DNA of 63,358 nt from Minisyncoccota bacterium. GTDB lineage: Bacteria; Patescibacteriota; Minisyncoccia; JAHIHE01; JAGLIN01. The stretch is taken from contig JAGLOZ010000002.1 in assembly GCA_023137595.1 (NCBI GenBank), positions 1 through 63,358 of the forward strand, read 5' to 3'. Shown here piece after piece: positions 13,801 to 61,236 of the stretch. How positions within the stretch are numbered: position 1 is the first letter of the stretch; the number at the start of each line of letters is the position of its first letter. A model generated the notes under the pieces. It had not been told where the DNA came from. It ran no database searches and saw nothing but the letters and a program-made list of their open reading frames with translations. Both the position numbers and the translations under genes were made by a program.

Positions 13801-14025
13801 GGACGCAAAGCATGAATTGGAGTTCTTACGAAAGTAAGTAGGAGCGCAAGATTTTGCGTTCACTTACGAAAGTAAGTAGGAACGCAAGATTTTGCGTTCA
13901 CACGTAAAATTAGCGAATTTCAAAAAAATTGTGACATTTCTTCCTGACTGAAGTTTACGCTGAATCCATTCGGCAAGCTCAGAACAAGCTTATTTCGGTA
14001 TCAAGATTCCGTTGTATTCAAATTC
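13801..14025. repeat. intergenic repeat family B (copy 1, with an internal 38-nt tandem duplication)
   Basis: Shares gacgcaaag..ggagt, acgcaa.attttgcgtt and gaatttcaaaa.aattgtga.atttcttcctgact blocks with 31921-32067, 34307-34455, 41559-41709 and 49111-49306. The unit cttacgaaagtaagtagga.cgcaagattttgcgttca occurs twice. Confidence 0.75.
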
Positions 14026-16261: not shown

Positions 16262-16416
16262 AAATTCCGGATCATACACGATTTAACCTATTTAATAATT
16301 AGAACTTTCTTGTTTTTGTCATTCTGAACTTGTTTCAGAATGACAGGTTTTTAAGAATAGTGAAATAGAGCGAAAAAAATTAAACTAGGGTTAAATTGCG
16401 CATGATCCGAAATTCC
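16262..16416. mobile_element. short MITE-like element (family A relative)
   Basis: About 29-bp terminal inverted repeats, aaattccggatcatacacgatttaaccta / tagggttaaattgcgcatgatccgaaattcc. The central hairpin is tgtcattctgaa-cttgtt-tcagaatgaca. Confidence 0.65.
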
Positions 16417-18216: not shown

Positions 18217-18243
18217 ACTGGGCAACGCTCCAGTCTTTTTTTA
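18217..18243. terminator. bidirectional terminator (17911 ORF / alaS)
   Basis: ACTGG-gcaacgct-CCAGT followed by TCTTTTTTT. Confidence 0.6.
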
Positions 18244-20214
18244 TTCCAAAACAGCTTTGATCCTTCTTACGCCAGCGCTTGAAGATTGTTCTTTCTTTAT
18301 TCTAAATTTTCCAAGCTCTGATGTGTTCTTGATGTGTGGACCACCGCAAATTTCTTTGCTGAAAATATCATCGTTTTTTCCAATGGTATAAACCTTCACC
18401 TTCTCTCCATATTTAGACTCAAACACTCCCATTGCGCCAATTTTTTTCGCTTCTTCCAAATTCATTTCCTCAAATGAAACCGGAAGCTTTTTTTGTATCT
18501 GCTCGCTCACCATTTCTTCAACTTTCTGTTTTTCTTCATCGGTCAATTTGTCGGCATGAGAATAATCAAATCTCAACCTTTCAGCAGTGATATTGCTCCC
18601 TTTTTGAAATACATGCTCGCCAAGAACTCTTCTTAATGATTCTAATAATAAATGCGCCGCCGTATGCAACCTTGTCGTTTCTTCACTCGCGTCCGCAAGC
18701 CCGCCCTTAAATTTCCCAGCTGAGGCTGTACGGGAGAGGGTTTGGTGTTTTTTGAACTCCTCGTTAAATTGTTTTTTAGTTTCTTCTAAATTAATCGGAT
18801 TACTTTTTTCTTTTACTAATTCAATGGTCATTTCTAGCGGGAGTCCAAAAGTAGAAAAAAAATAAAAAACATCCTCGCCACTTATAAATATATCATCTAT
18901 ATTACTCAGTCCTGCTTCTAAATTTCTTTGCTTATATAAATTTATCATCTCCTCAAATTCCTTCAACCCTTTTTTTATTGTCTTTTCAAACTTCTCCTCT
19001 TCCTTTTTGATCTCATCTAAGATTTTATCTTTATTATTCTCCAATTCAGGATAAAATTCTTTATAAATCTCTATCACAGTTTCAGCTAGCGGAAATAAAA
19101 ATCCATTTGGCATTTTCAACAAATTTCCATGCCTGATTGCGCGCCTTAACAATCTTCTCAAAATATATCCCCTATCTAAATTTGAAGGAAAAACTCCGTC
19201 TGAGATCATAAAGACTGAAGTTCTGATATGATCGGCAATAATTTTGATTGATTTTGTTTCCACATTGTCATTCTGAGCCGTAGGCGAAAGAATCCCGTCA
19301 TCAGACTCCTTGCATGTAGTTACGGGATTGCTTCGGGCTTCGCCCTCGCAATGACAATGTGACAAAGTCTTGACTTGAGCTACGATTGGAGCCAGTACAT
19401 CCGTTTCATAAACATTATCAAAGTCATTCAAAATAGCCAGAGTTCTCTCCATTCCCATCCCGGTATCAACGTTTTTTTGTCTTGATAAAACATATTTTCC
19501 TTCAGCCGTTTTATAATATTCCATAAATACATTATTCCAAATTTCAATATACCTTCCGCAATTGCATCCCGGTCTACAATTCTCAGCGTTAGGACAACTC
19601 TCAAAATTTACAGACTTTCCCAAGTCAATAAAAATCTCCGTATCAGGTCCGCACGGACCGGTCAATCCTGCCGGACCCCACCAATTATCCTCTTTTGGAA
19701 GAGGAAAGATCCTCGCATCTTCATTATTCTTTTTTTCTTTATCAAAAACTTCTGCGCTAACTCCAAGCTTTTCAAAACATTCTTGCCAGACCTTGACTGA
19801 CTCTTTGTCGCGCGGAGCGTCAACATCTCCCTCAAAAACCGTAACCTTGATCTTTTCTGGATCAATTCCAAGCCATTTTTCATCCGTTAGAAACTCCCAG
19901 CTCCAACGAATTGAATCATCTTTGAAATAATCTCCCAAAGACCAATTTCCAAGCATCTCAAAAAAAGTATTATGAGTGCTGTCGCCAACATCATCAATAT
20001 CCCCCGTCCTAACGCATTTTTGCACACTCACAAGCCTCTTTCCTTCGGAGTGCAATTCACCAAGCAAATATGGCACCAAAGGATGCATTCCGGCAGTCGT
20101 GAAAAGAACAGTCGGATCATTTTCCGGTACAAGCGAAGCCGAAGGAATCTCGCTATGTCCTCTTTCTTTAAAAAATTCAATATACTTTTTCCGCAATTCT
20201 TTGGAAGTGATCAT
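18241..20214 (-). CDS. alaS: alanyl-tRNA synthetase, short form (657 aa), carrying an in-frame repeat insertion
   Basis: FTTAGMHP, WNNVFMEY, DTGMGMER and HTAAHLL motifs. It lacks the usual C-terminal extension. Confidence 0.9.
   Translation of the reverse strand: MITSKELRKKYIEFFKERGHSEIPSASLVPENDPTVLFTTAGMHPLVPYLLGELHSEGKRLVSVQKCVRTGDIDDVGDSTHNTFFEMLGNWSLGDYFKDDSIRWSWEFLTDEKWLGIDPEKIKVTVFEGDVDAPRDKESVKVWQECFEKLGVSAEVFDKEKKNNEDARIFPLPKEDNWWGPAGLTGPCGPDTEIFIDLGKSVNFESCPNAENCRPGCNCGRYIEIWNNVFMEYYKTAEGKYVLSRQKNVDTGMGMERTLAILNDFDNVYETDVLAPIVAQVKTLSHCHCEGEARSNPVTTCKESDDGILSPTAQNDNVETKSIKIIADHIRTSVFMISDGVFPSNLDRGYILRRLLRRAIRHGNLLKMPNGFLFPLAETVIEIYKEFYPELENNKDKILDEIKKEEEKFEKTIKKGLKEFEEMINLYKQRNLEAGLSNIDDIFISGEDVFYFFSTFGLPLEMTIELVKEKSNPINLEETKKQFNEEFKKHQTLSRTASAGKFKGGLADASEETTRLHTAAHLLLESLRRVLGEHVFQKGSNITAERLRFDYSHADKLTDEEKQKVEEMVSEQIQKKLPVSFEEMNLEEAKKIGAMGVFESKYGEKVKVYTIGKNDDIFSKEICGGPHIKNTSELGKFRIKKEQSSSAGVRRIKAVLE
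19261..19361. repeat. palindromic repeat family C, copy embedded in frame in alaS
   Basis: Terminal inverted repeats (TIRs) CACATTGTCATTCTGAG / CTCGCAATGACAATGTG. The interior also pairs: aggcgaaagaatcccgt / acgggattgcttcg. Same tgtcattgcgag...cgaagcaatc family as 48395-48534. It translates as SHCHCEGEARSNPVTTCKESDDGILSPTAQNDNV. Confidence 0.8.
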
Positions 20215-20239
20215 TTAGTTAATTATTATTTAGTTATCA

Positions 20240-20348: not shown

Positions 20349-21668
20349 CTAAACACTCTCTACTGCTTTATCTTTCCTCGCTATGCTCCATTTCAAAAGC
20401 GGCGGAGTTACAAGAGTGGTAAGAATTACCATAATAACAATTGCGCCAAAAAGCGAATCATCTAAAACACCAAGTTCTTTTCCGATTCCGGCAAAAATAA
20501 GCCCCACTTCCCCCCTCGAGATCATTCCAATTCCAACTGTCAATTTACTTGCTCCTGGACATTTTACACCAAGTCCGCAAGCTTGTTTTCCAATAATAGA
20601 AACTGCTGTAATACCAAGAGCGATTATAATTATTTTTGGATCTAAAAATGCGTCTAATTTGACCTGAATTCCCATTAAAACAAAAAAGATAGGAACAAAA
20701 ATGCAATAGAGAGGCTTTACTAAAACTTCTATGTGATGCTCTTTTTTGTTTTTAAAAGACACATCGTCTAAAACCAAACCTGCCGCAAAAGCGCCAACAA
20801 TCGTCGCAAGACCCATTAGGTCTGCCATATAAGACATTACAAAAAGAAAAAGAAATGCTGTAACAATTTTCATGCCTTCTACTTTCATTCCTGAAACCCA
20901 TTTACCGATAAGCGGAGCAGCTTTGAGTCCGATTAAAATTGAACCAATCAAAAACACAACCGAAGTTAAACTTATAGTTACAATTGATGTGGCGCTTACG
21001 GTGCCTGAAATGACGATCCCGCTTACAATTGAAAGGATGATAAGACCCAGAACATCATCAATAACCGCAGCTCCAAGAATGATTTTAGCTTCCGGAGTTC
21101 TCAGCTTATCAAGGTCTTTTAACACTCTTGCAGTTATTCCAACTGAAGTAGCAGTTAAAGTCGCGCCAATAAAAAGATGAGCATTAAATCCGGCTTCAGG
21201 AATTATCCAACTGCTTACATAATATCCCAACACCATTGGCACTACAACGCCTACTATAGCAACTAAAAATGATGAAATTCCCACTTTCATCATATCTTTT
21301 ATATTTGATTCTAGCCCAACTTGAAAAAGAAGGATCATAACTCCAAGACGCGCCATAATGTCAATTGCCTCTGCTTCAACAAGATAACTAAAAGAAAAAG
21401 CGCCTCCGCTTAAAAGGGCTAAATTTCCTATCATAATTCCAAAAATCAGTTCTCCTAACACTGCCGGCTGATTCATTTTTTCAAAAAGTTCTCCTCCTAC
21501 TTTGGCAGCCAATAAAATAATAATTAGTCCGAACAACACAGGAGCTATCGGATCGGAATGCCCTGAGCTGGCTGCATGTTCAACTTCAGAGCTTGCATAA
21601 GAGATAAAAGGAGACATTACTAACAAAGCAATTAAACCGTACGACAAAAACTTTTTTGTGATTTTCAT
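20349..21668 (-). CDS. cation:proton antiporter (CPA2 / Na+-H+ exchanger family)
   Basis: About 12 TM helices, with GELIFGIMIGN and IGMISRGEVGLI motifs. Confidence 0.8.
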   Translation of the reverse strand: MKITKKFLSYGLIALLVMSPFISYASSEVEHAASSGHSDPIAPVLFGLIIILLAAKVGGELFEKMNQPAVLGELIFGIMIGNLALLSGGAFSFSYLVEAEAIDIMARLGVMILLFQVGLESNIKDMMKVGISSFLVAIVGVVVPMVLGYYVSSWIIPEAGFNAHLFIGATLTATSVGITARVLKDLDKLRTPEAKIILGAAVIDDVLGLIILSIVSGIVISGTVSATSIVTISLTSVVFLIGSILIGLKAAPLIGKWVSGMKVEGMKIVTAFLFLFVMSYMADLMGLATIVGAFAAGLVLDDVSFKNKKEHHIEVLVKPLYCIFVPIFFVLMGIQVKLDAFLDPKIIIIALGITAVSIIGKQACGLGVKCPGASKLTVGIGMISRGEVGLIFAGIGKELGVLDDSLFGAIVIMVILTTLVTPPLLKWSIARKDKAVESV

Positions 21669-23023: not shown

Positions 23024-23096
23024 GTTTATAAATTGTTTTTCCTCTTTTAAAAGAAGATGATCTTAAGTTCAAATATTAAAATTCCTTATTAATAAG

Positions 23097-23138
23097 TTAT
23101 AGCCTCTTTCCATGCGGCCGCATGGAAAGACACTATAA
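23097..23138. repeat. family D palindrome (core TCTTTCCATGCGGCCGCATGGAAAGA)
   Basis: Perfect 26-bp palindrome centred on GCGGCCGC, with TTATAG/CTATAA outer arms. Same core as 40070-40117 and 40699-40752. Confidence 0.8.
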
Positions 23139-23171
23139 AAAATAAAGACGATATTGTGATACTAATTATTA

Positions 23172-24266
23172 TTATATTATAACTCCCCCTCCTAAAATTT
23201 CGCTTCCCTTGCAAAAAACAACTGACTGACCGGACGTAATTGCGCGCTGTGGTTTGGAAAATTTCACAATATATTTACCTTTAATTTTATCAACAACAGC
23301 AGACTCTTCGTTCATTCTGTATCTGGCTTTTGCTTTTATTCCAAGAGGAAGTTTGGGAACGCTTCCGGAAATCCAATTTATTTTTTTCGCGATAAGCTCT
23401 TTTGAAAATAAATTTTTATCATTTTTATTGTTGCTTACGACAAGCTGATTTTTTTTGCGATTCAAGTTAATTACATAATATGGTCCTGTTCCGCCAATAC
23501 CAATGTCTCTTCGCTGGCCAATCGTATAAAGCGGCAATCCCTTGTGCTCTCCTAAAATATTATTATTTTCATCAACTATTTTTCCATGAACTAATTTTAA
23601 ATATTTTCTCAAAAAATCTCCGTAATACTTATCCTGAATAAAACAAATTTCCTGGCTCTCCTTTTGGAATTTACCCTTTAGGGTTTCATTTTTATCATAA
23701 ATTCCCAGCTTATATTCCTCCGCGATTTCTCTAACTTCATCTTTTGTATATTCCCCCAACGGAAACAAACAATGCTTTAACTTTTTCTGTGTTAAAGTAT
23801 ACAAAAAATACGACTGGTCTTTATTTTTGTCTTTTGCCTTTAGTAATTTATACCTAGTTTTTAGTTTTAAGTTTTTAGTTTTTATTTTTTTTACATAGTG
23901 TCCCGTCGCAATATGATCCGCTCCCATTTCCAAAGCTTTATCAAGCAAAATTCCAAATTTAATTTCCTTATTGCACATCACACACGGATTTGGCGTTCTT
24001 CCCTTTTCATATTCAGAAATAAAATAGCTGATTATTTCTTTCCTAAACTCTTTGCTTAAATTCACAGCATGAAACTTAATCCCTATTTTTTTCGCCACCG
24101 CCCGCGCATATTTTTCAGACTCATTATCTCCCGCAATTCCCAAACGCATAAAAATTCCTTCTACCTTATAGCCTTGTTCTTTCAATAAAACAGCCGCAAC
24201 CGAAGAATCAACTCCACCTGACATGGCAACAACCGCTTTTTTGTTTTCAGGAATTATCATTGACAT
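23172..24266 (-). CDS. mnmA: tRNA-specific 2-thiouridylase
   Basis: VAMSGGVDSSVAA PP-loop motif. Length and C-terminal domains are typical. Confidence 0.9.
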   Translation of the reverse strand: MSMIIPENKKAVVAMSGGVDSSVAAVLLKEQGYKVEGIFMRLGIAGDNESEKYARAVAKKIGIKFHAVNLSKEFRKEIISYFISEYEKGRTPNPCVMCNKEIKFGILLDKALEMGADHIATGHYVKKIKTKNLKLKTRYKLLKAKDKNKDQSYFLYTLTQKKLKHCLFPLGEYTKDEVREIAEEYKLGIYDKNETLKGKFQKESQEICFIQDKYYGDFLRKYLKLVHGKIVDENNNILGEHKGLPLYTIGQRRDIGIGGTGPYYVINLNRKKNQLVVSNNKNDKNLFSKELIAKKINWISGSVPKLPLGIKAKARYRMNEESAVVDKIKGKYIVKFSKPQRAITSGQSVVFCKGSEILGGGVII

Positions 24267-24705: not shown

Positions 24706-25083
24706 CTAATTATAAAGACTGCCTAATGCTTTATCCTTCTTAAATCTATCAATATTCTTCGTCACCTGCTTATAAAACTCCGGATAATGAATTCTGTTTA
24801 TCCAGCGGAATTTGTGAAATTGCCGATACGGTTTTTTTTGATGATGCGCAAGTTCATGCGCGATAACAGCAAGAATACTGCTGTATTTTTTTGGTTTTTT
24901 CAATTTCTGCGTATAGATATCAACTACCACTAATTTTGATTTTAAGTTAGTATAACCAAGCTTGTAATTTTTCACATACCCATCCCCCGCTCTGATCACT
25001 TTTGGCTTAAACGAAAAATCTTTGAGCTTTAAAGCTCTACAAGCCTCTTTGAAAATTTCTTCGCAATTTTGTTCGTGATTCAT
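24706..25083 (-). CDS. putative zinc metallopeptidase (HExxH; SprT/YgjP-like)
   Basis: VIAHELAHH motif. Confidence 0.55.
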   Translation of the reverse strand: MNHEQNCEEIFKEACRALKLKDFSFKPKVIRAGDGYVKNYKLGYTNLKSKLVVVDIYTQKLKKPKKYSSILAVIAHELAHHQKKPYRQFHKFRWINRIHYPEFYKQVTKNIDRFKKDKALGSLYN

Positions 25084-25095
25084 AATTCCTGATTC

Positions 25096-26988
25096 TTAGT
25101 TCATAATTCTATCTCCAAAATACCAATCCAGCACCTCTTTTGCCACAGGAACCGCCGCCGCATGCCCTTCTCCTCCTCCTTCGATTATTACTGCCAGAGC
25201 GATCTCTGGATCATCATAAGGAGCATACGCGATATACCAAGCGTGTGTTTTTTGATTTCCGAAATATTGCGCGGTTCCTGTTTTACCGGCAACTTCTATC
25301 GGCAGATTACGCAGCGCTATTCCCGAACCGGATATAACATTTTCCCTCATTCCTTTCTGAACCCACTTTATATTCTCCAAATCCACAAAACCCTCTTTTA
25401 TTATCTTTGGATCTATATCTTCAATTATCTTGCCGTCAGAATCTATGATTTTATCAACTATTTGCGGCTGGAATAATTTTCCTCCATTTGCGATCACGGC
25501 GGTATAATTTGCGATCTGAAGAGGAGTTGCTAGAACATCTCCTTGCCCTATGGAAACATGATAGGTATCGCCTATATACCATTTTTCATTTTTCGTCTCT
25601 TCTTTCCATTTCTTATCAGGAGTAAGTCCTTTTATTTCTCCCGGTATGTCAATTCCTGAAATATTTCCAAGTCCGAAAAGATTTGCATATTTTTTTATCC
25701 TATCAATCCCCAATCCTTCTATATTTCCATGCCCTCCGCCCACTGTATAAAAATATACATTACAAGATTGCGCAATAGCCTTTTTTAGGTCAACCAAACC
25801 GTGCACTTTCCAATCTGGATAACTGTACGAACCGACATATATCGCTCCGCTAGCGAATATTTTGCGCTGAGGACTTATAATTCCTTCTTGCAGAGCCGCT
25901 ACTCCTATCAAGGGCTTAAAGGTTGACCCGGGCGGATATTGTCCGGCAATCGCTTTATTCAGAAGAGGGTTGGTCTTGTCAGCAAGCAATTTGTTATAAT
26001 CGTCGCTACTTATTCCTTTTGCGAATAAATTGTTATCGTAAGAAGGAAAATTAACAAGAGCAAGAACTGCGCCATTTTTTGGATTAATCGCAACAACAGA
26101 TGCTCCCGCTTCAGTTTCCAACCTTTCTATTATCTTCTCTAATTCGTCGTATATTTTTTTCTGTAGTTCTATATCTACATTTAAAATTAAATTATTACCG
26201 GAAACAGGAGCTTCTTTATTTATTGTTCTTGTCTTTTCTCCAAAAGAATCTACTTCAATTTCTTCTTTGCCATATTCTCCTCTGAGCTGTTTCTCGTAAA
26301 AAAGTTCAAGTCCATCTTTCCCTATTGTATCCGTTAAAAGATAGCCAGAATTAACATTCAATTCTTTTTCGTTTATTCTTCCGCTATAGCCTATAATATT
26401 TGAAATATATTTACTATCAATATAATTCCGTATAGCGTTTTTTTCCAGTTTAACTCCGTCTATTTTTTTTATTTCTTCCTCCAATATCAACGCCTCATCT
26501 TTTTCTATATTTTCCAAAATTAAAAAAGATTGATGCGAAAATCTATCCGCTTTATTGATTTTCTCCGTTAAGTCGTCTTCTTTCATTTCAATTATCAGAG
26601 AAAGTTTTTTTATCTTTTCTTTGATTCTATCTTTATCTTTTAGAAAATCATACGGAATAATTACAAGATCAAAAATAGGCACATTAAAAACAATTTGCTT
26701 ATTATTTCGATCATAAATTATTCCTCTTGGAGATTTTACAGCAACAACTCTTTTGTAATTGTTTTCTGAAATCTCCGTATAATGTCCGCCTTTTATTATC
26801 TGCAAATAAGCTGATTGAAGAACAAGCGCTAAAAGAACGAGGAAAAATAATTTCTTAACTGTTTTTATGTTTTTAACGCCCAGAGGGATCTCTAAATTAC
26901 TATCTTTTCTTGCTACAGAATCCAAAAAAAACTCTTCCAGCTCAAGAGATTCTTTATTCTTATTTTTTATAAAATGTTTATTTTTCAT
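25096..26988 (-). CDS. mrdA: penicillin-binding protein 2 (elongasome transpeptidase)
   Basis: PGSTFKP, SCNVYF and KTGTA motifs. Lies downstream of mreBCD. Confidence 0.85.
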   Translation of the reverse strand: MKNKHFIKNKNKESLELEEFFLDSVARKDSNLEIPLGVKNIKTVKKLFFLVLLALVLQSAYLQIIKGGHYTEISENNYKRVVAVKSPRGIIYDRNNKQIVFNVPIFDLVIIPYDFLKDKDRIKEKIKKLSLIIEMKEDDLTEKINKADRFSHQSFLILENIEKDEALILEEEIKKIDGVKLEKNAIRNYIDSKYISNIIGYSGRINEKELNVNSGYLLTDTIGKDGLELFYEKQLRGEYGKEEIEVDSFGEKTRTINKEAPVSGNNLILNVDIELQKKIYDELEKIIERLETEAGASVVAINPKNGAVLALVNFPSYDNNLFAKGISSDDYNKLLADKTNPLLNKAIAGQYPPGSTFKPLIGVAALQEGIISPQRKIFASGAIYVGSYSYPDWKVHGLVDLKKAIAQSCNVYFYTVGGGHGNIEGLGIDRIKKYANLFGLGNISGIDIPGEIKGLTPDKKWKEETKNEKWYIGDTYHVSIGQGDVLATPLQIANYTAVIANGGKLFQPQIVDKIIDSDGKIIEDIDPKIIKEGFVDLENIKWVQKGMRENVISGSGIALRNLPIEVAGKTGTAQYFGNQKTHAWYIAYAPYDDPEIALAVIIEGGGEGHAAAVPVAKEVLDWYFGDRIMN

Positions 26989-27000
26989 TTACTTAAGATT

Positions 27001-27306
27001 ATGCGAAATTTAACCCTAACATAACTTCTTCACTTTAACTCGCCTGCAAAAATTTGTCATCCTGAATTTATTTCAGGATCTTTGTTGTTTTAGGTTTTAA
27101 CTTATTACTATTCAACACTATACTTTCATCTACAATACAAATACAATTATCTTTCTATAATAACACAACCATTGTATTTTTAATTTATTCAAGAGTTCTG
27201 TGATTTATGGATTTTATTAAATGTAAAAGAAAATAGATCCTGAAACAAATTCAGGATGACAAACAGCAAAAGTTTTTGTTATTGATACATAGTTAAATTG
27301 CACATA
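27001..27306. mobile_element. MITE-like element, family A
   Basis: Inner TIRs tgtcatcctgaatttatttcaggatc / gatcctgaaacaaattcaggatgaca (27055-27261). Outer TIRs atgcgaaatttaaccct / tagttaaattgcacat. The conserved interior is aacactatactttcat.tacaa...tgatttatgga. Confidence 0.75.
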
Positions 27307-31575: not shown

Positions 31576-31920
31576 TCTAGCGCCTCTCTGGTTCGGTGTC
31601 TTCCTTATTGATTCAGCGTCTCTGACCTGAACTTTTTTTTACATCATCTTTCGGAATTTATCACTGAACTAAATTCAGCGCAAGCTCTTCAGGGTTTCAT
31701 TTTTGATTTGCGACAACCTTGAAGCCATCAAAGGGTAAATTTCTATTTTGATCCTACTATTTTATTCTGCGCGAGAACAAGATTGTCCCGAGTAGTCGGG
31801 ATTTCTTTTGTTTTGAAATTTCATCTATTGCTGTTCCCTATAACAATAATCCTCGCTCTATGATTTTCTAATCTATTTTCCTGTCTCCAACAAACAAATG
31901 TATTCTTGTTAATTTAATGT

Positions 31921-32067
31921 ATAGGAATTCCAATATCACGGAATCCTGACGAGAGTCAGGAAGAAGCATCACAATTCTTTTGAAATTCACTAATCTTTCT
32001 TATGAACGCAAAATCTTGCGTTCCTACTCACTTTCGTGAGGACTCCAATTCGCGTTTTGCGTATGCG
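31921..32067. repeat. intergenic repeat family B (inverted orientation)
   Basis: ataggaatt...cctgacgagagtcaggaagaag.atcacaattcttttgaaattc...acgcaaaatcttgcgtt...gaggactcc. Confidence 0.75.
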
Positions 32068-34306: not shown

Positions 34307-34455
34307 CAAAGACGCAAAGCGCAGATCGGAGTCCTCATGAGAGTGAGTAGAAACGCAAAATTTTGCGTTCATAAAAAAGATTAGCGAATTTCAAAAGAAT
34401 TGTGATATTTCTTCCTGACTCTCATCAGGATTCCATGAGATTAAAATTCCTATGC
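34307..34455. repeat. intergenic repeat family B
   Basis: caaagacgcaaagcgcagatcggagtcctc...acgcaaaattttgcgtt...gaatttcaaaagaattgtgatatttcttcctgact...aaaattcctatgc. Confidence 0.75.
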
Positions 34456-34481
34456 TTTTAATTATTTTCATCCAAACACAC

Positions 34482-36670: not shown

Positions 36671-36774
36671 TGTCATTCCGAAAAATTTTGTATCCGCCAG
36701 CAAGCAGAAAATAAATTTATCCGGAATCCAGCAAGTATTACCGGCGTGTCATTCCTGTGAAGGCAAGAATCCAG
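36671..36774. repeat. palindromic repeat family C (gtcattcc... gaatcc modules)
   Basis: tgtcattccg...ccggaatccag and gtgtcattcctgtgaaggcaagaatccag. Confidence 0.6.
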
Positions 36775-40069: not shown

Positions 40070-40117
40070 TAGCCATAGCATCTTTCCATGCGGCCGCATG
40101 GAAAGATGCTATGGCTA
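40070..40117. repeat. family D perfect 48-bp palindrome (NotI-centred), overlapping the stop codon of the 40115 gene
   Basis: tAGCCATAGCATCTTTCCATGCGGCCGCATGGAAAGATGCTATGGCTa, symmetric about 40093/40094. Confidence 0.9.
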
Positions 40118-40639
40118 TATTTCCTCTATTAGAAATAATTTTACATATGAATCAATAGAATGTTTCCTTAAAATAAATTCAGTCTCTTTTTGAACATCAT
40201 AAGGACAAATCCAGATGCTTTGTTGAAGCATTTTATATTTCAGAAGAATAAGTTTTTCTCGCAACAAATTTCTCAAGTATCTTTTTTCTTCAGGAATATC
40301 AAAAATTATCATTTGCCATTTTTTGTCAGGTCTTTTTTTATTATCTTTTATTTTAAGTCTTGCTTTTAGAACTTTTTCTGCTCCTTTTTTGGTTAAAAGA
40401 ATTCCTTCATTTTGTTCTAAATTTTTAATCTTAATATAACCATTTTTCTTTAGATGATAAACTAGTTGAGTAAATTGCTGTTTTGTTTGTTTTTTTCTAT
40501 ACTGATTCTTTAATTCATAAAGAGACGGATAGCAATATTCTTTCATTTTTCTATACGAAAAAACAGTAAAGGTGTTGTCTAATTTCTCAGCATAGCTACA
40601 GACATCTAATAAAAATTTTTCAGTAATCGGAAGTTTCAT
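40115..40639 (-). CDS. wHTH regulator with a PaaX-type (Cas2-like) C-terminal domain
   Basis: N-terminal winged-helix-like segment (QLVYHLKKNGYIKI). C-terminal KKWQMIIFDIPEEKRYLRNLLREKLILLKYKMLQQSIWICPYD matches the W-x-iv-FDIPE...SvW.P pattern of PaaX-family/Cas2-like domains. Confidence 0.6.
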   Translation of the reverse strand: MKLPITEKFLLDVCSYAEKLDNTFTVFSYRKMKEYCYPSLYELKNQYRKKQTKQQFTQLVYHLKKNGYIKIKNLEQNEGILLTKKGAEKVLKARLKIKDNKKRPDKKWQMIIFDIPEEKRYLRNLLREKLILLKYKMLQQSIWICPYDVQKETEFILRKHSIDSYVKLFLIEEI

Positions 40640-40698: not shown

Positions 40699-40752
40699 AT
40701 ATAGCCATAGCATCTTTCCATGCGGCCGCATGGAAAGATGCTATGGCTATAT
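40699..40752. repeat. family D perfect 54-bp palindrome, 60-113 nt upstream of the 40115-40639 gene
   Basis: atATAGCCATAGCATCTTTCCATGCGGCCGCATGGAAAGATGCTATGGCTATat, symmetric about 40725/40726. A TATAAT box lies about 15-17 nt downstream (gene sense) of its edge. Confidence 0.9.
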
Positions 40753-40848
40753 TTTCATAATCTATCAGTCAAAAGCTACAACGAGTTGTCTAATAGTTAT
40801 AATAAAAAATTATAAATAGTTATTATAAATACGATAAATATTTAGAGT

Positions 40849-41394: not shown

Positions 41395-41859
41395 TGTCAT
41401 TCTGAACTTGTTTCAGAATCTTTTACATGTTAGGTTTTAATTTTCGCTATTTAACGCCATATTTTCATTTACAGTAATTCTAGGTTTTCTTGATTAGTTT
41501 TCATTTGTTTGAGCTAGATTTTAAAAATAAATTTGGTCTTTGATATATACATGAAATACAAGCAGACATCGTGCAAACTGGAGTCCTCGCGAGAGCGAGG
41601 ATGAAATTTCGCAAGATTATTGAATTTCAAAAGAAATATGATATTTCTCCCTGACTGGAATTTATGAATTCAGTTCAGTATCGGGACTTCTTAGTATTAA
41701 AATTCCTTAATAATAATCTATTTTTAATTACAAACAACCGTTTCATCCTAAGCTTGTTTCAATATTTTCGCTGATTTCACGTAATACTATCTAAATGTAA
41801 AATACCGTAGATTCTGAAACAAAGCCTGTGCTGAATTTAGTTCAGTATTCAGAATGACA
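41395..41859. mobile_element. MITE-like element family A with a nested family B insertion
   Basis: Ends tgtcattctgaacttgtttcagaatc / ttcagtattcagaatgaca. The interior has ctatttaacgccatattttcatttacag. A family B copy lies at 41559-41709. Confidence 0.7.
41559..41709. repeat. intergenic repeat family B, nested inside the family A element
   Basis: cagacatcgtgcaaactggagtcctcgcgagagcgagg...gaatttcaaaagaaatatgatatttctccctgact...aaaattcctta. Confidence 0.7.
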
Positions 41860-44482: not shown

Positions 44483-44687
44483 TGTCATCCTGAATCCATT
44501 CGACTACCGCTCAGAACAAGCTTATTTCAGGATCTTTTGTAATTTAGGTCTGATCTATTCTATTTAACACTATACTTTCATTTACAACGCACACACAGAT
44601 TATATTAATTTATTCAAACGCTTTGATAATTTATGGATTTGATTAGATGTAAGAGAAAATAGATTCTGAACTAAATTCAGAATGACA
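44483..44687. mobile_element. MITE-like element, family A
   Basis: tgtcatcctgaatccattcgactaccgctcagaacaagcttatttcaggatc ... agattctgaactaaattcagaatgaca. The conserved interior is aacactatactttcatttacaacgca... Confidence 0.75.
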
Positions 44688-46508: not shown

Positions 46509-46688
46509 TGTCATCCTAAACTTGTTCCAGAATCTTTTGACTGCATGGACCAGCCTCTATCCAACACTGACCTTTTGCATACAATGTAGCCAATGTTTGG
46601 ATGATTTATGGCTTATGACCAACGTAATATACAGTGGATTCTGAAATAAGCTTGTTCTGAGCGGTAGTCAAATGGATTCAGAATGACA
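46509..46688. mobile_element. MITE-like element, family A
   Basis: tgtcatcctaaacttgttccagaatc ... ggattctgaaataagcttgttctgagcggtagtcaaatggattcagaatgaca. Confidence 0.7.
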
Positions 46689-46694
46689 AAATTT

Positions 46695-47345
46695 CTATTT
46701 TTTTATTTCTGTAAATTTTTTCTTTTGCGATAATATTTTTGAAATATCGTAATTTTTAACTCCATAAAGCACTCTTGAAGCAATATAAATCCCCATCGGC
46801 ACAAAAATCAAATTTCCAACCAGGTTATTTCTAAAAAATGGGATCGCCATCCAATAGCACCTCGCAAGTCCCGACAAACTATATTCATACATTCCGGACA
46901 TCAGCCACCAGCCAAAGTTGGTACACAAATAAAAGAATATGGAAGATAATAGAGCTAAAACAATTGAATTTTTCGTTCCAAGTTCATAATCTTTTCTCTG
47001 ATTATATTTTTTTTCTAACTTCCAATTTTCCGCTTTAACTGGATTCCCGTCTTCACAGGAATGACAAGTTTTTTTCTTAAAAAAACATCCAAACAATCCA
47101 ATTGCCGCGAATGCTGTCCAAGTGAAAATGAAAATATATGTATTCCCAATTACCAAATCACTCAAAAAAATTATAGAAAGCGGAACTGCAACCGCGTAAA
47201 CACCGCCCAGATATATCCCCGAAATCAAAGCCAAAACGGTTATTATTTCAAGATTTGGAATTCCGATATAGCTTACTAAAACAAATCTACCAACTACGCC
47301 GATTATTATCAGCATCAATGCTATAAGTATTTTCGATTTATTCAT
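46695..47345 (-). CDS. polytopic membrane protein (ECF S-component-like), with a repeat-derived internal segment
   Basis: Six TM helices. The central hydrophilic insert is ..KKTCHSCEDGNPVKAENWKLEKK... Confidence 0.55.
   Translation of the reverse strand: MNKSKILIALMLIIIGVVGRFVLVSYIGIPNLEIITVLALISGIYLGGVYAVAVPLSIIFLSDLVIGNTYIFIFTWTAFAAIGLFGCFFKKKTCHSCEDGNPVKAENWKLEKKYNQRKDYELGTKNSIVLALLSSIFFYLCTNFGWWLMSGMYEYSLSGLARCYWMAIPFFRNNLVGNLIFVPMGIYIASRVLYGVKNYDISKILSQKKKFTEIKK
47041..47066. repeat. family C hairpin module inside the coding sequence
   Basis: Gene-sense TGTCATTCCTGTGAAGACGGGAATCC is near-identical to the intergenic tgtcattcctgtgaaggcaagaatcc at 36749-36774. It encodes CHSCEDGNP. Confidence 0.7.
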
Positions 47346-47375
47346 AATTCTAATTTCATAATTCTAAATTCCAAA

Positions 47376-47825
47376 TCAAAACGGCACTTCTTCAAATCTC
47401 CATTCTACCACATCCCCTTCTTCCAAAACTTTTTTATCAGCCGCGACATCACCCAAAACATCATTCATATAATACTGCCAATATTTTCCATCAACTCCAT
47501 TCTCAATTCCATCAATATTTTCTATAAAAACTCCAAAACTATAATCATTATTATATTTTATATCAACGCTATTTTTTAAAATATCAAATACAGTGACCTG
47601 TTCTGAAATATCATTTAACTCATATTCTTTTTTTTCTTCGCTTCCATTATCTATTTTGAGCAGAACAGAAAATTTTATCTCATCTGATTTTTCAATAATA
47701 CCAACCTTGTCATCATTTTTTTTGGAAGCAATATCAGCGCTCAAAAAGAAGAAAACGGCAAGCAACAGCACCAAAGCCAGCACAAGCGACAATATTTTAT
47801 TATGTTTTTTGCCCATCTTCCCCAT
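47376..47825 (-). CDS. DUF4430-like (transcobalamin-like fold) TM-anchored protein
   Basis: GKYWQYYMNDVLGDVAADKKVLEEGDVVEWRF C-terminal signature. N-terminal TM helix. Confidence 0.6.
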   Translation of the reverse strand: MGKMGKKHNKILSLVLALVLLLAVFFFLSADIASKKNDDKVGIIEKSDEIKFSVLLKIDNGSEEKKEYELNDISEQVTVFDILKNSVDIKYNNDYSFGVFIENIDGIENGVDGKYWQYYMNDVLGDVAADKKVLEEGDVVEWRFEEVPF

Positions 47826-48394: not shown

Positions 48395-48534
48395 TGTCAT
48401 TGCGAGAAGTCTGAGCAAGCGTAGCGAATGAAGTGGCGACGAAGCAATCTCTTAATTAAATTCCTCGTACATAGTTATGGGATTGCTTCGTCATTTCACT
48501 ACGCTATCGCTCTGTTCCACTCCTCACAATGACA
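48395..48534. repeat. palindromic repeat family C (intergenic, rplK-nusG)
   Basis: tgtcattgcgagaag...cgacgaagcaatc...gggattgcttcgtc...ctcacaatgaca. Confidence 0.75.
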
Positions 48535-49110: not shown

Positions 49111-49306
49111 CAAAGACATAGACACTTTCGCATATTTTGGAGTCCTCGCACTGGACTAAATTCAGCATAAACTCCAGCAAGAATGAAGCTTCACAGGATA
49201 AACGCGTTTCAAAATAATTGTGATCCCTCTTCCTGACTAGAGTCTATATTGAATTCAGCTCAGTATTAGGACTCCGCAATGTCCAAATTCCTATGCTTTG
49301 AATTAA
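49111..49306. repeat. intergenic repeat family B (between secE and nusG)
   Basis: caaagacatagac...ttggagtcctcgc...caaaataattgtgatccctcttcctgact...aaattcctatgc. Confidence 0.7.
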
Positions 49307-51777: not shown

Positions 51778-51919
51778 AAAATAGCTCTATAATATAATAA
51801 GTTTTTGTTTTTTCATTTCTTGTTATAAGTATAGCCGTTTGGAAAAATATGACAAGAATTTAATTGTCATTGCAAGAAGCCTGAACGAACAAAGTGAATG
51901 ACGACAAATAGAGACTAGC

Positions 51920-54589: not shown

Positions 54590-54823
54590 TGTCGTTCTAA
54601 GCGTCGTTCTGAACCTGTCTGCTGATAGGCAGGCTTGTTTCAGAATCATTATTATTTTAGGTCTGATTTATACTATATTAACACCACACTTTCATTTACA
54701 GCGCAAACACAATTATTTTTTATAATACAGCTATTGTATTATAAATTCGTTCAAAAGTTTAGTGATTTATAGGTTTGATCAAATGCAAAATACAATAGAT
54801 TCTGAACTGAATTCAGAATGACA
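54590..54823. mobile_element. MITE-like element, family A
   Basis: gtcgttctgaacctgtctgctgataggcaggcttgtttcagaatc ... agattctgaactgaattcagaatgaca. The conserved interior is aacaccacactttcatttacagcgca. Confidence 0.75.
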
Positions 54824-57316: not shown

Positions 57317-58987
57317 TTATTTCCCAACACCTCTCACCTCAGCCTCAATCTTCCCGTCAGAGATTTTTATATCAACAGCATCTCCTTTCCCCACTTGTTT
57401 TATGCTTCTTACAATTTTCCCGCCAAATGACACTATGCTATAACCAAGCTTCAATTGCCTTTCCGGATCGCTCGCGTTTATTGCATTTTCAAAAATATTT
57501 ATTTTGTTTTTTGTGTCTATGATCTTTCGACTATAATTTGAAAATATTCGGCTTGCAGAATCATCAACTGCGTGTCTCGCGCCATCAATCGCGTAATTTA
57601 TATTTTTAACTATTTTCAAAAAATTATTTTCCGCGTCAGTGAATCTTTGCAGTATATTTTCAAATTTTTGGTTCAGACTAAAAGAAATTCTTTCAATTTT
57701 GTGCTTGGATTCATATAAATATTTTTCAAATGAATTTATTAGAATTGCTTCATTGCGATTTAGTTTTTCAAAAGCCTTGTCCCATGATTCCCGAATTGCT
57801 CTTGCCGCAGCGGTCGGAGTTGAAACCGCAAGATCAGAAACAAGAGAAACAAGAGAAATATCTTTTTCATGTCCCACTCCGCAAATAACAGGGATATTCA
57901 AATCCGCAATTTCCCGCACCAGCGCCTCGTTGTTAAACGCCTGCAAGCTTTCCAAGCTTCCGCCTCCCCGAACTATTACCAGCGCGTCAATTTTTTTTAT
58001 TTTCCTAAATTGTCTCACAGCTTTTATGAGATCAAAAACAGCTTGTTTTCCCTCAACGCTGGAATCTATAAATTTGATCTTAAATCCATAGCTTCCCAAA
58101 TTTGTCGTAAAATCCCCTATCGCAGCACCCTTTGATGAAGTTATGAGTCCGATCGTTTCTGGCAGTTCCGGCAAAGATTTTTTTCTTTCAAGAGCAAACA
58201 ACCCTTCTTTTTCAAGTTTATTTTTAATTTCGTCATAAGCTTTTTTCAACGCCCCTTCTCCCGCAACTTCAACCAGACTTGTTTTTAGACTCAATTTTCC
58301 ATACGGCTTATAAATTTCAGGTCTTCCGCTTGCAATAATTTCATTTCCAATCTTGATCTTTACGCCGGAAATCTCATATTGATACCGAAAGATCAAACAA
58401 TTGATAACACTATCATCTTTCTCATCTTTTAAACTGAAATATACCACCTTCTCCCTTTCGTCAACGCTTGTCACCTCGCCTTTCAATCTCACCTCTTCAC
58501 TCGTCAATTTCTCATTCAAATGATCCAGAAATTCGCTAACGGAATAAATTTTTTCTTTTTGATCCGTTGCGCTAAAATCTAACGATGCGGTGCTCTCTTC
58601 TTCCCGCCCTGCCGGAGTCTCTCGCAAAGAACTATGATAAGATTCAGAATTACCCTCGCTTTCGCGAAAACTCCGATTCGCGCTTTGTCTTTCTGGTAAA
58701 ATTATATTCCTACCAGCCTGTCCGGCAGGCGGGAAAAACGGCTGCCTGCTGTCTATTTTATCATTTCCCAGACTTTCTTTTACCATATCCAAAATCTCCT
58801 TGCCATATTTATAATATTTTTTATCTTTTATTCCCTTGATACTTGTCAACTCTTCTCTCGTTTTTGGCTCCATCCTTGCAACATCTTCAATGGCTCTGTT
58901 TGGCAACACGCGAAAAATCTCAACCATTTCTCTTTTGGCCGTTGCGTCTCTCCACGCCTTTAATTTTCTGAGGAGATTTGGGTTCAT
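57317..58987 (-). CDS. xseA: HRDC domain - repeat-derived linker - exodeoxyribonuclease VII large subunit fusion
   Basis: N-terminal 70 aa are HRDC-like (LKAWRDATAKREMVEIFRVLPNRAIEDVARMEPKTREELTSIKGI). Residues from about 145 onward are XseA (IYSVSEFLDHLN...IGLITSSKGAAIGDF). Confidence 0.8.
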   Translation of the reverse strand: MNPNLLRKLKAWRDATAKREMVEIFRVLPNRAIEDVARMEPKTREELTSIKGIKDKKYYKYGKEILDMVKESLGNDKIDSRQPFFPPAGQAGRNIILPERQSANRSFRESEGNSESYHSSLRETPAGREEESTASLDFSATDQKEKIYSVSEFLDHLNEKLTSEEVRLKGEVTSVDEREKVVYFSLKDEKDDSVINCLIFRYQYEISGVKIKIGNEIIASGRPEIYKPYGKLSLKTSLVEVAGEGALKKAYDEIKNKLEKEGLFALERKKSLPELPETIGLITSSKGAAIGDFTTNLGSYGFKIKFIDSSVEGKQAVFDLIKAVRQFRKIKKIDALVIVRGGGSLESLQAFNNEALVREIADLNIPVICGVGHEKDISLVSLVSDLAVSTPTAAARAIRESWDKAFEKLNRNEAILINSFEKYLYESKHKIERISFSLNQKFENILQRFTDAENNFLKIVKNINYAIDGARHAVDDSASRIFSNYSRKIIDTKNKINIFENAINASDPERQLKLGYSIVSFGGKIVRSIKQVGKGDAVDIKISDGKIEAEVRGVGK

Positions 58988-59797: not shown

Positions 59798-59850
59798 TTT
59801 TTTGCTTTAGTTTTATTCATAATTCTATATTCTAAATTCTAAATTCTTTT

Positions 59851-60942
59851 TTATACCGCCTTTTCTTTTTCAAAATCTTTCGGCTCGTCAAAAATAAAAA
59901 TATTATCCGAAAAGAAATTGATTGAGACCTTGTCTCCGGATCTTAGATCGCTTGGAGTTCTTTTCAAGGCGTTCACTTCAGTTCCGTCAAAAAGTCTTAT
60001 GATATATTGCCATTTGTCTCCTAAAAAATTAACAAATTCAATTGTTCCTTTGATATTCTCTTTTCTGACAGCGCTGTCTATATGTATTTTTTCTGAACGA
60101 ACTCCCAGGACAACTTTCTTCTTTGAGTTATTTTTCGGCAGCTCAATTACGGCATCCTGAAATCTTACATGATTTTTATCAACCATTTCACAGCGAAAAA
60201 AATTACAGCGTCCCAAAAAATACGCAGCAAAAATTGAATTTGGCTTGTCATAGATTTCTTTCGGCGATCCGGATTGAACAACTTTTCCCCGCTTCATCAT
60301 TATAATATTATCAGAGATCGTCATCGCCTCTTCCTGGTTATGCGTTACATGGATCGCGGTAAGCTTATATTCTTTGATCAGTTTCATTAGATCATATCGA
60401 AGAGCGGTTCCAATGCGAGCATCCAAGGCTCCAAGAGGCTCGTCCAGAAGCATCAAGGGAGATTTGGTCGCAATCGCGCGCGCCACGGCAACTCTTTGCT
60501 GCATTCCGCCTGAAAGCTCGTTTGGGTAAGCGTTTGCCCGATCATCCAGCCTGACCATTTTCAAAACTTCGTGAATATAATTCTTTGTTTTTTGCGAAAA
60601 ATTATTTCTGATCATGGGACCATAGCTTACATTATGCCAAACATCCATATGAGGAAAAAGAGAATAGCTTTGAAACACAAATCCTATATTTCTCTCTTGC
60701 GTAGGCATATTTGTAATATCTTTTCTGCCAAAAAAAACTTTTCCGCTTGTCGGCTCTTCTAGTCCTGAGATCATGCGAAGCAATGTCGTTTTTCCACACC
60801 CGGAAGGACCAAGAAGCGTGTTATAGCTATATTTTTTTATTTCCAGACTGACATCGTTAACGGCAACGATAATTTCTCCTTTCGTTGCTTCATTTATAGA
60901 AATGAATTTTTTGGTAAGTTTTTTTAATTTTATATTTGGCAT
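59851..60942 (-). CDS. ABC importer ATP-binding protein (PotA/FbpC/CysA type, with a C-terminal regulatory domain)
   Basis: Walker A GPSGCGKTT, signature LSGGMQQRVAVARA, Walker B LLLDEP. Confidence 0.85.
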   Translation of the reverse strand: MPNIKLKKLTKKFISINEATKGEIIVAVNDVSLEIKKYSYNTLLGPSGCGKTTLLRMISGLEEPTSGKVFFGRKDITNMPTQERNIGFVFQSYSLFPHMDVWHNVSYGPMIRNNFSQKTKNYIHEVLKMVRLDDRANAYPNELSGGMQQRVAVARAIATKSPLMLLDEPLGALDARIGTALRYDLMKLIKEYKLTAIHVTHNQEEAMTISDNIIMMKRGKVVQSGSPKEIYDKPNSIFAAYFLGRCNFFRCEMVDKNHVRFQDAVIELPKNNSKKKVVLGVRSEKIHIDSAVRKENIKGTIEFVNFLGDKWQYIIRLFDGTEVNALKRTPSDLRSGDKVSINFFSDNIFIFDEPKDFEKEKAV

Positions 60943-61009: not shown

Positions 61010-61236
61010 TGTCATTCTGAATCCATTCAGTAAACCCAGGACAAGCTTAGTTCAGAATCTATTATGTATTAGATTTCAATCTATCCTGTTTATATTAACT
61101 TTCACCTAAACTATAAATACAACTATTTCTTGTATGAATATTGTAATTGTGTTTTCGTTCCAATCAAAATGTTTGATGATTTATTGAATAAATTAGTGTA
61201 ATAATTGAAAGATTCTGAACTAAATTCAGAATGACA
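61010..61236. mobile_element. MITE-like element, family A
   Basis: tgtcattctgaatccattcagtaaacccaggacaagcttagttcagaatc ... agattctgaactaaattcagaatgaca. Confidence 0.75.

Follow-up and report, generated by a model that had tools for sequence, protein, structure and literature searches.

An in-frame palindromic repeat within the alanyl-tRNA synthetase gene of a Minisyncoccota bacterium: probable read-through of dispersed selfish DNA as a tolerated loop

How does a palindromic repeat of about 100 nt come to lie in frame within the essential gene for alanyl-tRNA synthetase (AlaRS), and does the peptide that it encodes serve the enzyme? The question was raised by a stretch of 63,358 nt (the window), i.e., positions 1 to 63,358 of contig JAGLOZ010000002.1 (assembly GCA_023137595.1) from a Minisyncoccota bacterium, a member of the Patescibacteria or Candidate Phyla Radiation (CPR), in which alaS bears such an element. 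On the evidence given below we consider it probable that the alaS insert is an in-frame copy of a dispersed selfish palindromic repeat, which is read through as a tolerated disordered loop. The gene, the element and its landmarks are as follows.

18241..20214, minus strand: alaS, short-form AlaRS of 657 aa, host of the element (from its open reading frame and Pfam)
19444..19467, minus strand: DTGMGMER codons, class II motif 3 region, residues 250-257, upstream landmark
19261..19361, minus strand: whole palindromic element including its extended inverted ends, residues 285-318
19222..19242, minus strand: IIADHIR codons, start of the tRNA-recognition helical domain, residues 325-331, downstream landmark

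The alaS open reading frame (ORF) product matched Pfam tRNA-synt_2c (E = 7e-127) and tRNA_SAD (E = 1.3e-14), and its nearest relatives in a homology search were alanine--tRNA ligases of Patescibacteria/Parcubacteria/Paceibacterota. A preliminary description of the window had placed an in-frame palindromic element of about 100 nt inside this gene, between the DTGMGMER and IIADHIR blocks, and its coordinates, inverted ends, frame and placement all held. The segment running from DTGMG to IIADHIR is 82 residues long in the window's AlaRS, compared with 52 in orthologs of 606-610 aa (e.g., 607 aa) and 54 in E. coli. When aligned with E. coli AlaRS (PDB 3HXU), residues 282-316 were left unaligned, within a gap between E. 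coli residues 266 and 274; the insertion point is the short linker between the aminoacylation domain and the helical domain that recognises tRNA. An AlphaFold2 model built with 77 homologs had a mean pLDDT (predicted local distance difference test score) of 83.6 overall, with residues 289-315 below 50 as a coil between helices 275-285 and 311-338, and with values of 32-41 for the insert region. The insert of about 30 residues is thus predicted to form a disordered, hydrophilic surface loop. Residues 285-318 read SHCHCEGEARSNPVTTCKESDDGILSPTAQNDNV; the tryptic peptides from residues 282-324 include SNPVTTCK and ESDDGILSPTAQNDNVETK. A phmmer search with the 34-aa insert against 1.84 billion representatives returned a single match (50 aa, E = 6.6e-4), and a 41-aa peptide query found no word-sharing candidates. 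A self-splicing insert (intein or group I/II intron) was considered and rejected: the insert is a low-complexity coil of 30-34 aa and gave no Rfam match at E up to 1, the Rfam search of the window finding three tRNAs and nothing at the alaS element.

Repeats are a classic source of mis-joins in metagenome assemblies, and the insert might in principle be an assembly chimera or sequencing artefact in which a repeat was wrongly joined into alaS, although no result obtained here specifically favors this. A base-identical alaS, insert included, was present in two independent sample assemblies (SAMN18200495 scaffold_194 and SAMN18200496 scaffold_9215), so that a mis-join is excluded for practical purposes. 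Homologous inserts occupy the same alaS site in orthologs from ENA, NCBI, JGI and Logan assemblies, and the alaS reading frame is kept; we regard an artefact as extremely improbable. A scan of genome collections for AlaRS recovered mostly distant short-form enzymes and, among the matches listed, one insert-bearing ortholog (L001). The short form of about 600 aa (tRNA-synt_2c plus tRNA_SAD, with other Pfam domains undetected) is shared at 50-55% identity (loci L002-L080) by CPR genomes and by metagenome-assembled genomes labelled as Christensenellaceae/Clostridia, DPANN archaea, Bathyarchaeia and Spirochaetota; this distribution is oddly wide, and some of the host labels may be binning errors.

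The ends of the element, CACATTGTCATTCTGAG (19261-19277) and the reverse complement of 19345-19361 (CACATTGTCATTGCGAG), paired at 15 of 17 positions, and when the window was dinucleotide-shuffled 100 times, no shuffle held three or more matches to the terminal 17-mer. The predicted fold of the element region (116 nt) had an energy of -40.3 kcal/mol (z = -3.66), which was equalled by none of 200 shuffles. Within the element, a 91-nt core read on the coding strand from 19356 down to 19266 resolves into a left unit, a 27-nt spacer and a right unit:

19324..19356, minus strand: 5' (left) unit, in coding sense TGTC-ATTGC-GA-GGGC-GAA-GCCC-GAA-GCAAT-CCC, a TGTC-tagged hairpin resembling repetitive extragenic palindromes (REPs), encoding CHCEGEARSNP
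19297..19323, minus strand: spacer/loop of 27 nt, GTAACTACATGCAAGGAGTCTGATGAC, whose initial bases are part of the family-conserved core CGAAGCAATCCCGTAACTAC
19266..19296, minus strand: 3' (right) unit, in coding sense GGGATTCTTTCGCCTACGGCTCAGAATGACA, a degenerate inverted copy encoding GILSPTAQND

The left unit folds by itself (-6.3 kcal/mol, z = -2.4), leaving its 4-nt TGTC tag and 3-nt CCC tail unpaired, while the right unit (GGG-ATTCTTTCGCCTACGGCTCAGAAT-GACA) folds weakly alone (z = -0.87). Complementarity in the alaS copy runs 5 nt beyond the TGTC/GACA ends. The architecture is that of an inverted dimer of TGTC-tagged REP-like hairpins, with the tags facing outward and the CCC tails inward. 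The first 31 nt of the left unit (TGTCATTGCGAGGGCGAAGCCCGAAGCAATC) are identical in two orthologs (P0006 and P0003 of the survey described below) and differ by one base in a third (P0004); the end of the right unit, CTCAGAATGACA, matches the ends of a palindrome family, TGTCATTCTGAA, that is abundant in the window.

By its sequence the alaS element is a member of a dispersed family with the plan TGTCATTGCGAG...CGAAGCAATCCCGTAACTA...GGGATTGCTTCG...CTCGCAATGACA. Two further pieces of this family were located in the window:

48395..48534, minus strand: intergenic family member of 140 nt, a long-arm variant oriented like the alaS copy (blastn)
51865..51901, plus strand: partial left-arm copy of the 48395-type element (78% over 37 nt, E = 0.002)

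A blastn comparison within the window aligned 48395-48534 with the alaS element over a 51-nt core (74.5% identity, E = 4e-4), with shared TGTCATTG[CT]GAG ends. The preliminary description had assigned three intergenic segments to the family. The assignment stood for 48395-48534; for 51862-51912 it reduced to the partial arm copy listed above; and it failed for 36671-36774, which did not align with the alaS element and shares with it only a TGTCATTC head. This last segment is built of TGTC-tagged units belonging to another family, its kinship being at the superfamily level only. Beyond the window, a scan of JGI metagenomes with an 18-mer (GAAGCAATCCCRTAACTA) returned 69 loci, which were filtered for the presence of both ends and the inner stem. 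About 30 of these carried the full architecture, in which TGTCATTGCGAG or CGTCATTGCGAG is followed by a variable arm, the core hairpin, the second arm and finally CTCGCAATGAC(A/G), and the remaining half or so were chance matches to the 18-mer. The full copies were 80-169 nt long, lay on contigs with a GC fraction of 0.31-0.59, and were almost all intergenic. The element thus has nucleotide matches well outside alaS, both in the window and in many metagenomes, and genomes with the insert (e.g., L157) hold intergenic copies as well. In that genome, from which the AlaRS P0006 derives, the TGTCATTGCGAG family was also seen in spacers of the S10/L3/L4/L23/L2/S19/L22 ribosomal-protein operon (L157:17955-18094, 18265-18386, 20204-20215 and 21426-21549). 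Three orthologs share an identical core, CGAAGCAATCCCGTAACTAC, in their alaS copies.

No consistent direct repeat that would mark a target-site duplication flanked 23 copies of the family. Neither a parent insertion sequence bearing these ends nor a transposase turned up, the window and the fetched loci not having been screened for transposases. Family copies are not unusually open, and the idea of a "pre-adapted" ORF, as proposed for repeats of Rickettsia, was set aside: the alaS reading frame was open in one of 24 copies, and in-frame copies in other hosts use other frames. Such copies were found in the tRNA 2-thiouridylase MnmA (L116 and L159) and in a gene resembling S-adenosylmethionine (SAM)-dependent methyltransferases (L093). 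The MnmA copies occupy the same loop in two unrelated assemblies, between GHYVRLQ and ..KDQSYFLY (L159:6876-8099, the MnmA of the P0005 genome, GCA_029210775.1; and L116:1438-1551), and their frame reads NVIARE...APRNDN. Since the L159 MnmA also holds an in-frame copy, the P0005 genome carries the family in both alaS and mnmA. No family insert was found in mnmA of the window (23172-24266, minus strand) or of L083.

To what known kind of repeat does this family belong? Di Nocera, De Gregorio and Rocco (2013, BMC Genomics 14:522; PMC3733652) described a REP superfamily that bears the tag CGTC, often TGTC (also CCTC), with a stem of 8-9 bp starting with A-T pairs, a loop of 4-5 nt and a CCA-like tail. 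Its units occur mostly as inverted dimers with spacers of 20-100 bp, have no dedicated transposase, and are known from five phyla; members include RPE-6 (CGTC-1) and RPE-4 (CGTC-4) among the Rickettsia palindromic elements (RPEs) and dRS3 of Neisseria, and intragenic dimers encoding 20-30 aa are found, among other places, in tRNA synthetases and tRNA-modifying enzymes (PMC3733652). The alaS element is alike in many respects. It ends in TGTC/GACA, with the tag unpaired in the fold of the left unit (metagenome copies have TGTC or CGTC); its ATTGC/GCAAT stem begins with A-T and T-A pairs; the unpaired tail is CCC in alaS and CCC, CCA or CTC in other copies; and two inverted units stand 27 nt apart. 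The family is mostly intergenic with occasional in-frame dimers, and neither a target-site duplication nor a dedicated transposase is apparent. The differences lie in the ATTGCGAG...GAAGCAAT unit stem, which is interrupted (5 bp and 4 bp, parted by an internal loop) where the published stems are 8-9 bp, and in the loop of the left unit, which has 3 nt (GAA) instead of 4-5 nt. Moreover, the whole dimer including the spacer core is conserved and there are long-arm variants of 120-170 nt, the peptides VIAS, HCE and SNP are absent from the list of intragenic elements in PMC3733652, and Patescibacteria are not among its five phyla.

The preliminary description had likened the insert to the RPEs. 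According to the account given of Ogata et al. (2000, Science 290:347; 2002) in the review PMC10969869, elements of the RPE-1 type are palindromes of 100-150 bp that lie in frame in unrelated housekeeping genes and are translated; in the same account, RPEs sit at fold-compatible positions, are present in some orthologs and absent in others, and keep a conserved ORF or peptide. The present family resembles them as a dispersed palindrome in frame in conserved protein genes whose function is presumably retained. Unlike RPEs, it is read in three frames in alaS, mnmA and the methyltransferase gene, with the low openness noted above, and its host is a free-living or episymbiotic CPR bacterium and not an intracellular alphaproteobacterium. 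The likeness to an RPE event in an unrelated lineage was borne out by the TGTC-tagged units, and kinship with RPEs may be argued through the published placing of RPE-4 and RPE-6 in the CGTC superfamily (PMC3733652). Bacterial MITEs (miniature transposable elements with inverted repeats) that fuse in frame were also compared; these include ERIC, the Coxiella QMITE and cyanobacterial MITEs (PMC10969869). They share with the alaS element small size, non-autonomy, terminal inverted repeats and occasional intragenic copies that are read through, whereas the present family lacks a target-site duplication in the 23 copies examined. The alaS element is most aptly classed with the RPE/intragenic REP dimers, as a new family from a phylum new to that kind; our literature searches found no report of in-frame repeats of the REP or MITE type in Patescibacteria/CPR.

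We surveyed the best 120 AlaRS homologs (P0001-P0120) for the state of the same loop. The element, whole or partial, was present at exactly the same site in about 18 (P0001-P0014, P0020, P0025, P0063 and P0109; 66-80% identity), all from Paceibacteria. The insert is an addition relative to the baseline enzyme and is not unique to this genome. At the DNA level the left arm and core (66 nt) are nearly invariant among the orthologs, while the right arm occurs in three variants, giving elements of 91, 99 and 100 nt. The three right-arm lengths put the 3' end into two reading frames (..LAMT vs ..xND); the downstream flank varies in length and the frame is restored each time, compensation of the kind that selection for an intact AlaRS would be expected to leave.

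Several orthologs record the loss or replacement of the element. In P0021, TGTCATTGT joined to AATGACA is all that remains, with junctions as in P0007; this state is an internal-deletion scar. P0031 has 92.6% DNA identity to P0007 and is without exactly 108 nt between two GAC triplets. It might have been taken for a pristine empty site; however, P0021, which was placed outside the P0004/P0007/P0030/P0031 group with 93% bootstrap, bears the scar with P0007 junctions, and for this reason P0031 is more likely a secondary deletion. Other orthologs have unrelated repeat-derived peptides in the same loop (TPTLSQ..ERE, LRQAQGDN and PLTPTLSP..GEGEIQN), and P0020 has two elements in tandem. In three sister pairs, each with 100% bootstrap, the two members have different loop states (P0006/P0023, P0011/P0052 and P0025/P0039): P0023, the sister of P0006, has an ancestral-type SGKKY..KKS loop, and P0006 is a mosaic, with a loop like that of P0003 and a C-terminal half like that of P0023. 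The P0004 and P0007 genes are 85% identical in nucleotides and carry different element subfamilies. The arm found in P0007 (GAGGAGGGACGA) has its match in the intergenic copies L130 and L116, and the right arm of P0006 is identical at 39 of 40 positions to an intergenic copy of its own genome. From these states we infer a turnover of the insert in which gene conversion with other copies in the genome, allelic recombination and deletion all take part; site-specific insertion that recurs could also be the source of elements at the same site.

The same survey disclosed at least three more hypervariable in-frame insertion sites in AlaRS (alignment core positions 235, 391 and 424), with inserts of 9-124 aa. 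Some of these inserts have repeat-typical peptides (SRIKNQELR, NQELRIKNDEK and NSKFQIQNNRK) resembling the "ttcataattctaaattc" repeats of the window (25078-25119, 47340-47381 and 59815-59856), and the AlaRS of the window has an 18-aa insert (NLYKQRNLEAGLSNIDDI) at the second of these sites. The conserved AlaRS C-H-C-G codons, which lie some 210 nt upstream of the element, read TGTCATTGCGG(A/G) (L157:10646-10657, L158:1646-1657 and L159:10658-10669); this near-match to the terminal 12-mer of the element is probably a coincidence.

Is the peptide or the nucleic acid under selection within alaS? Substitutions in the element and in the surrounding gene were compared by codon position for 21 ortholog pairs. 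Identity within the element was about 0.80 at each codon position; in the gene it was 0.87 at positions 1 and 2 and 0.57 at position 3. For most pairs fewer than 5% of 22-codon windows of the gene reached the third-position identity of the element, and divergence of the gene and of the element were uncorrelated (r = 0.06). The equal conservation of codon positions, together with an element divergence that is not tied to that of the gene, speaks for selfish DNA that undergoes turnover or gene conversion and not for a selected peptide. The preliminary description had proposed that the repeat was exapted, in which case the loop (e.g., the CHCE head, rich in Cys/His) would serve AlaRS by way of a metal, tRNA or a partner and be kept by selection. 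In keeping with that proposal, the insert stays in frame and free of stops, with indels that compensate the frame, in about 18 orthologs whose synonymous sites are saturated, and the head HCHCEGEARSNPVTT recurs. Against it stand the substitution pattern just given, the variability of the Cys/His residues (HRHCE, CCHGE, VCCLCE and HCYCE), the close relatives that lack the insert or carry unrelated repeats in the loop, the predicted disorder of the region (pLDDT 32-41), and the conservation of the same DNA in intergenic copies. Exaptation of the peptide is in our judgment quite unlikely.

The excess of nucleotide conservation over the synonymous background, seen in the window comparison for most pairs, and the significance of the predicted fold could be explained if the hairpin were kept in alaS as a nucleic-acid signal, either as a structure in the mRNA affecting translation or decay or as a DNA site for a host factor, with the peptide as a by-product. 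Yet intergenic members in unrelated contexts and hosts are as well conserved, so that conservation characterises the family and not alaS; the alaS copy has a degenerate right arm; relatives whose genes are nearly identical lack the element; and no Rfam family matched. A signal of this kind we hold to be very unlikely.

Selfish DNA that is read through would account for these data as follows. A dispersed non-coding palindromic repeat, an inverted dimer with a 27-nt spacer, would have entered alaS at the codons of the inter-domain linker. In an essential gene only insertions that keep the frame and lack stops would survive, so that translation would run across the alaS copy without a break and yield a surface loop of about 30 residues, hydrophilic and disordered, which the enzyme would tolerate. 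The element would then have occupied the same alaS site across a clade of Paceibacteria as resident selfish DNA. Its arms may have been swapped, by gene conversion or re-insertion, with subfamily variants that circulate intergenically in the same genomes; allelic recombination may carry it between lineages; and deletion between or within the hairpin arms may erode or remove it.

Certain points weigh against this account. Only one clear additional family copy was present in the 63-kb window, and the interrupted unit stems (5 + 4 bp, with a 3-nt loop) are an imperfect fit to the published CGTC families. Translation of the insert, like its tolerance, its gene conversion and its mode of mobilisation, is something that we infer. 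The restriction to one exact site, with elements that do not track their genes, fits either an old insertion followed by gene conversion or repeated site-specific insertion, and conservation above the synonymous level could mean that a DNA or RNA structure is selected. A bolder proposal takes up the last of these points: the AlaRS linker of Paceibacteria would be a long-lived "landing pad" for at least three to four families of REP-type palindromes, which are inserted, converted, exchanged and deleted there, with a selected role for the hairpin DNA or RNA in alaS. We think this unlikely; if true, the essential genes of reduced CPR genomes would have, in selfish repeats, a permanent supply of structured cassettes that can be exchanged.

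The window contains other repeats. A single in-frame TGTC-tagged REP unit lies at 47041-47066, within ORF 46695-47345 (minus strand), which encodes a predicted membrane protein of 216 aa; its reverse complement, TGTC-ATTCCTGT-GAAG-ACGGGAAT-CC, has a canonical-looking form (8-bp stem, 4-nt loop), and its peptide CHSCEDGNP resembles the R. conorii CGTC-1 peptide CYSRESRNP (PMC3733652). At 58580-58770, in the N-terminal part of ORF 57317-58987 (minus strand, 556 aa), a low-complexity stretch (..PPAGQAGRNIILPERQSANRSFRESEGNSESYHSSLRETPAGREEE..) overlaps GC-rich, repeat-like DNA (cctgccggag / ccggcaggcggg), and is probably another repeat-derived in-frame segment. The second abundant palindrome family, with TGTCATTCTGAA or TGTCATCCTGAA ends that match the right end of the alaS element, was intergenic throughout the window, at these sites:

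16317-16345, 27055-27261, 41395-41406/41848-41859, 44483-44687, 46677-46688, 54812-54823 and 61010-61236: second palindrome family

Some of these are short perfect hairpins directly downstream of genes and look like terminators. A perfect palindrome of 53 nt with a NotI-like core (..CTTTCCATGCGGCCGCATGGAAAG..) occurs at 40070-40122 and 40702-40754 (100% identical, 632 nt apart), with a third copy at 23094-23146 (72%). A family of about 150 nt, 76-88% identical and in both orientations, was found at 13802-13957, 31910-32062, 34311-34464, 41610-41664 and 49192-49246, of which the 153-nt inverted pair 31910-32062 / 34312-34464 encloses 2.2 kb.

The in-frame inserts indicate that streamlined CPR genomes still tolerate REP-type repeats in essential translation genes, in alaS here and in mnmA in relatives. 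The ortholog series forms an unusually complete life cycle at one site, with an intact copy, an exchange of subfamily, a scar, a clean deletion and other repeat families taking its place. In practical terms, inserts of this kind inflate and fragment the marker-gene alignments used for CPR phylogeny, and repeat inserts seed spurious "hypothetical proteins", so that recognising them aids annotation. The event in alaS is of a known kind, as in Rickettsia, here found in a new lineage and at a permissive loop that has been struck repeatedly.

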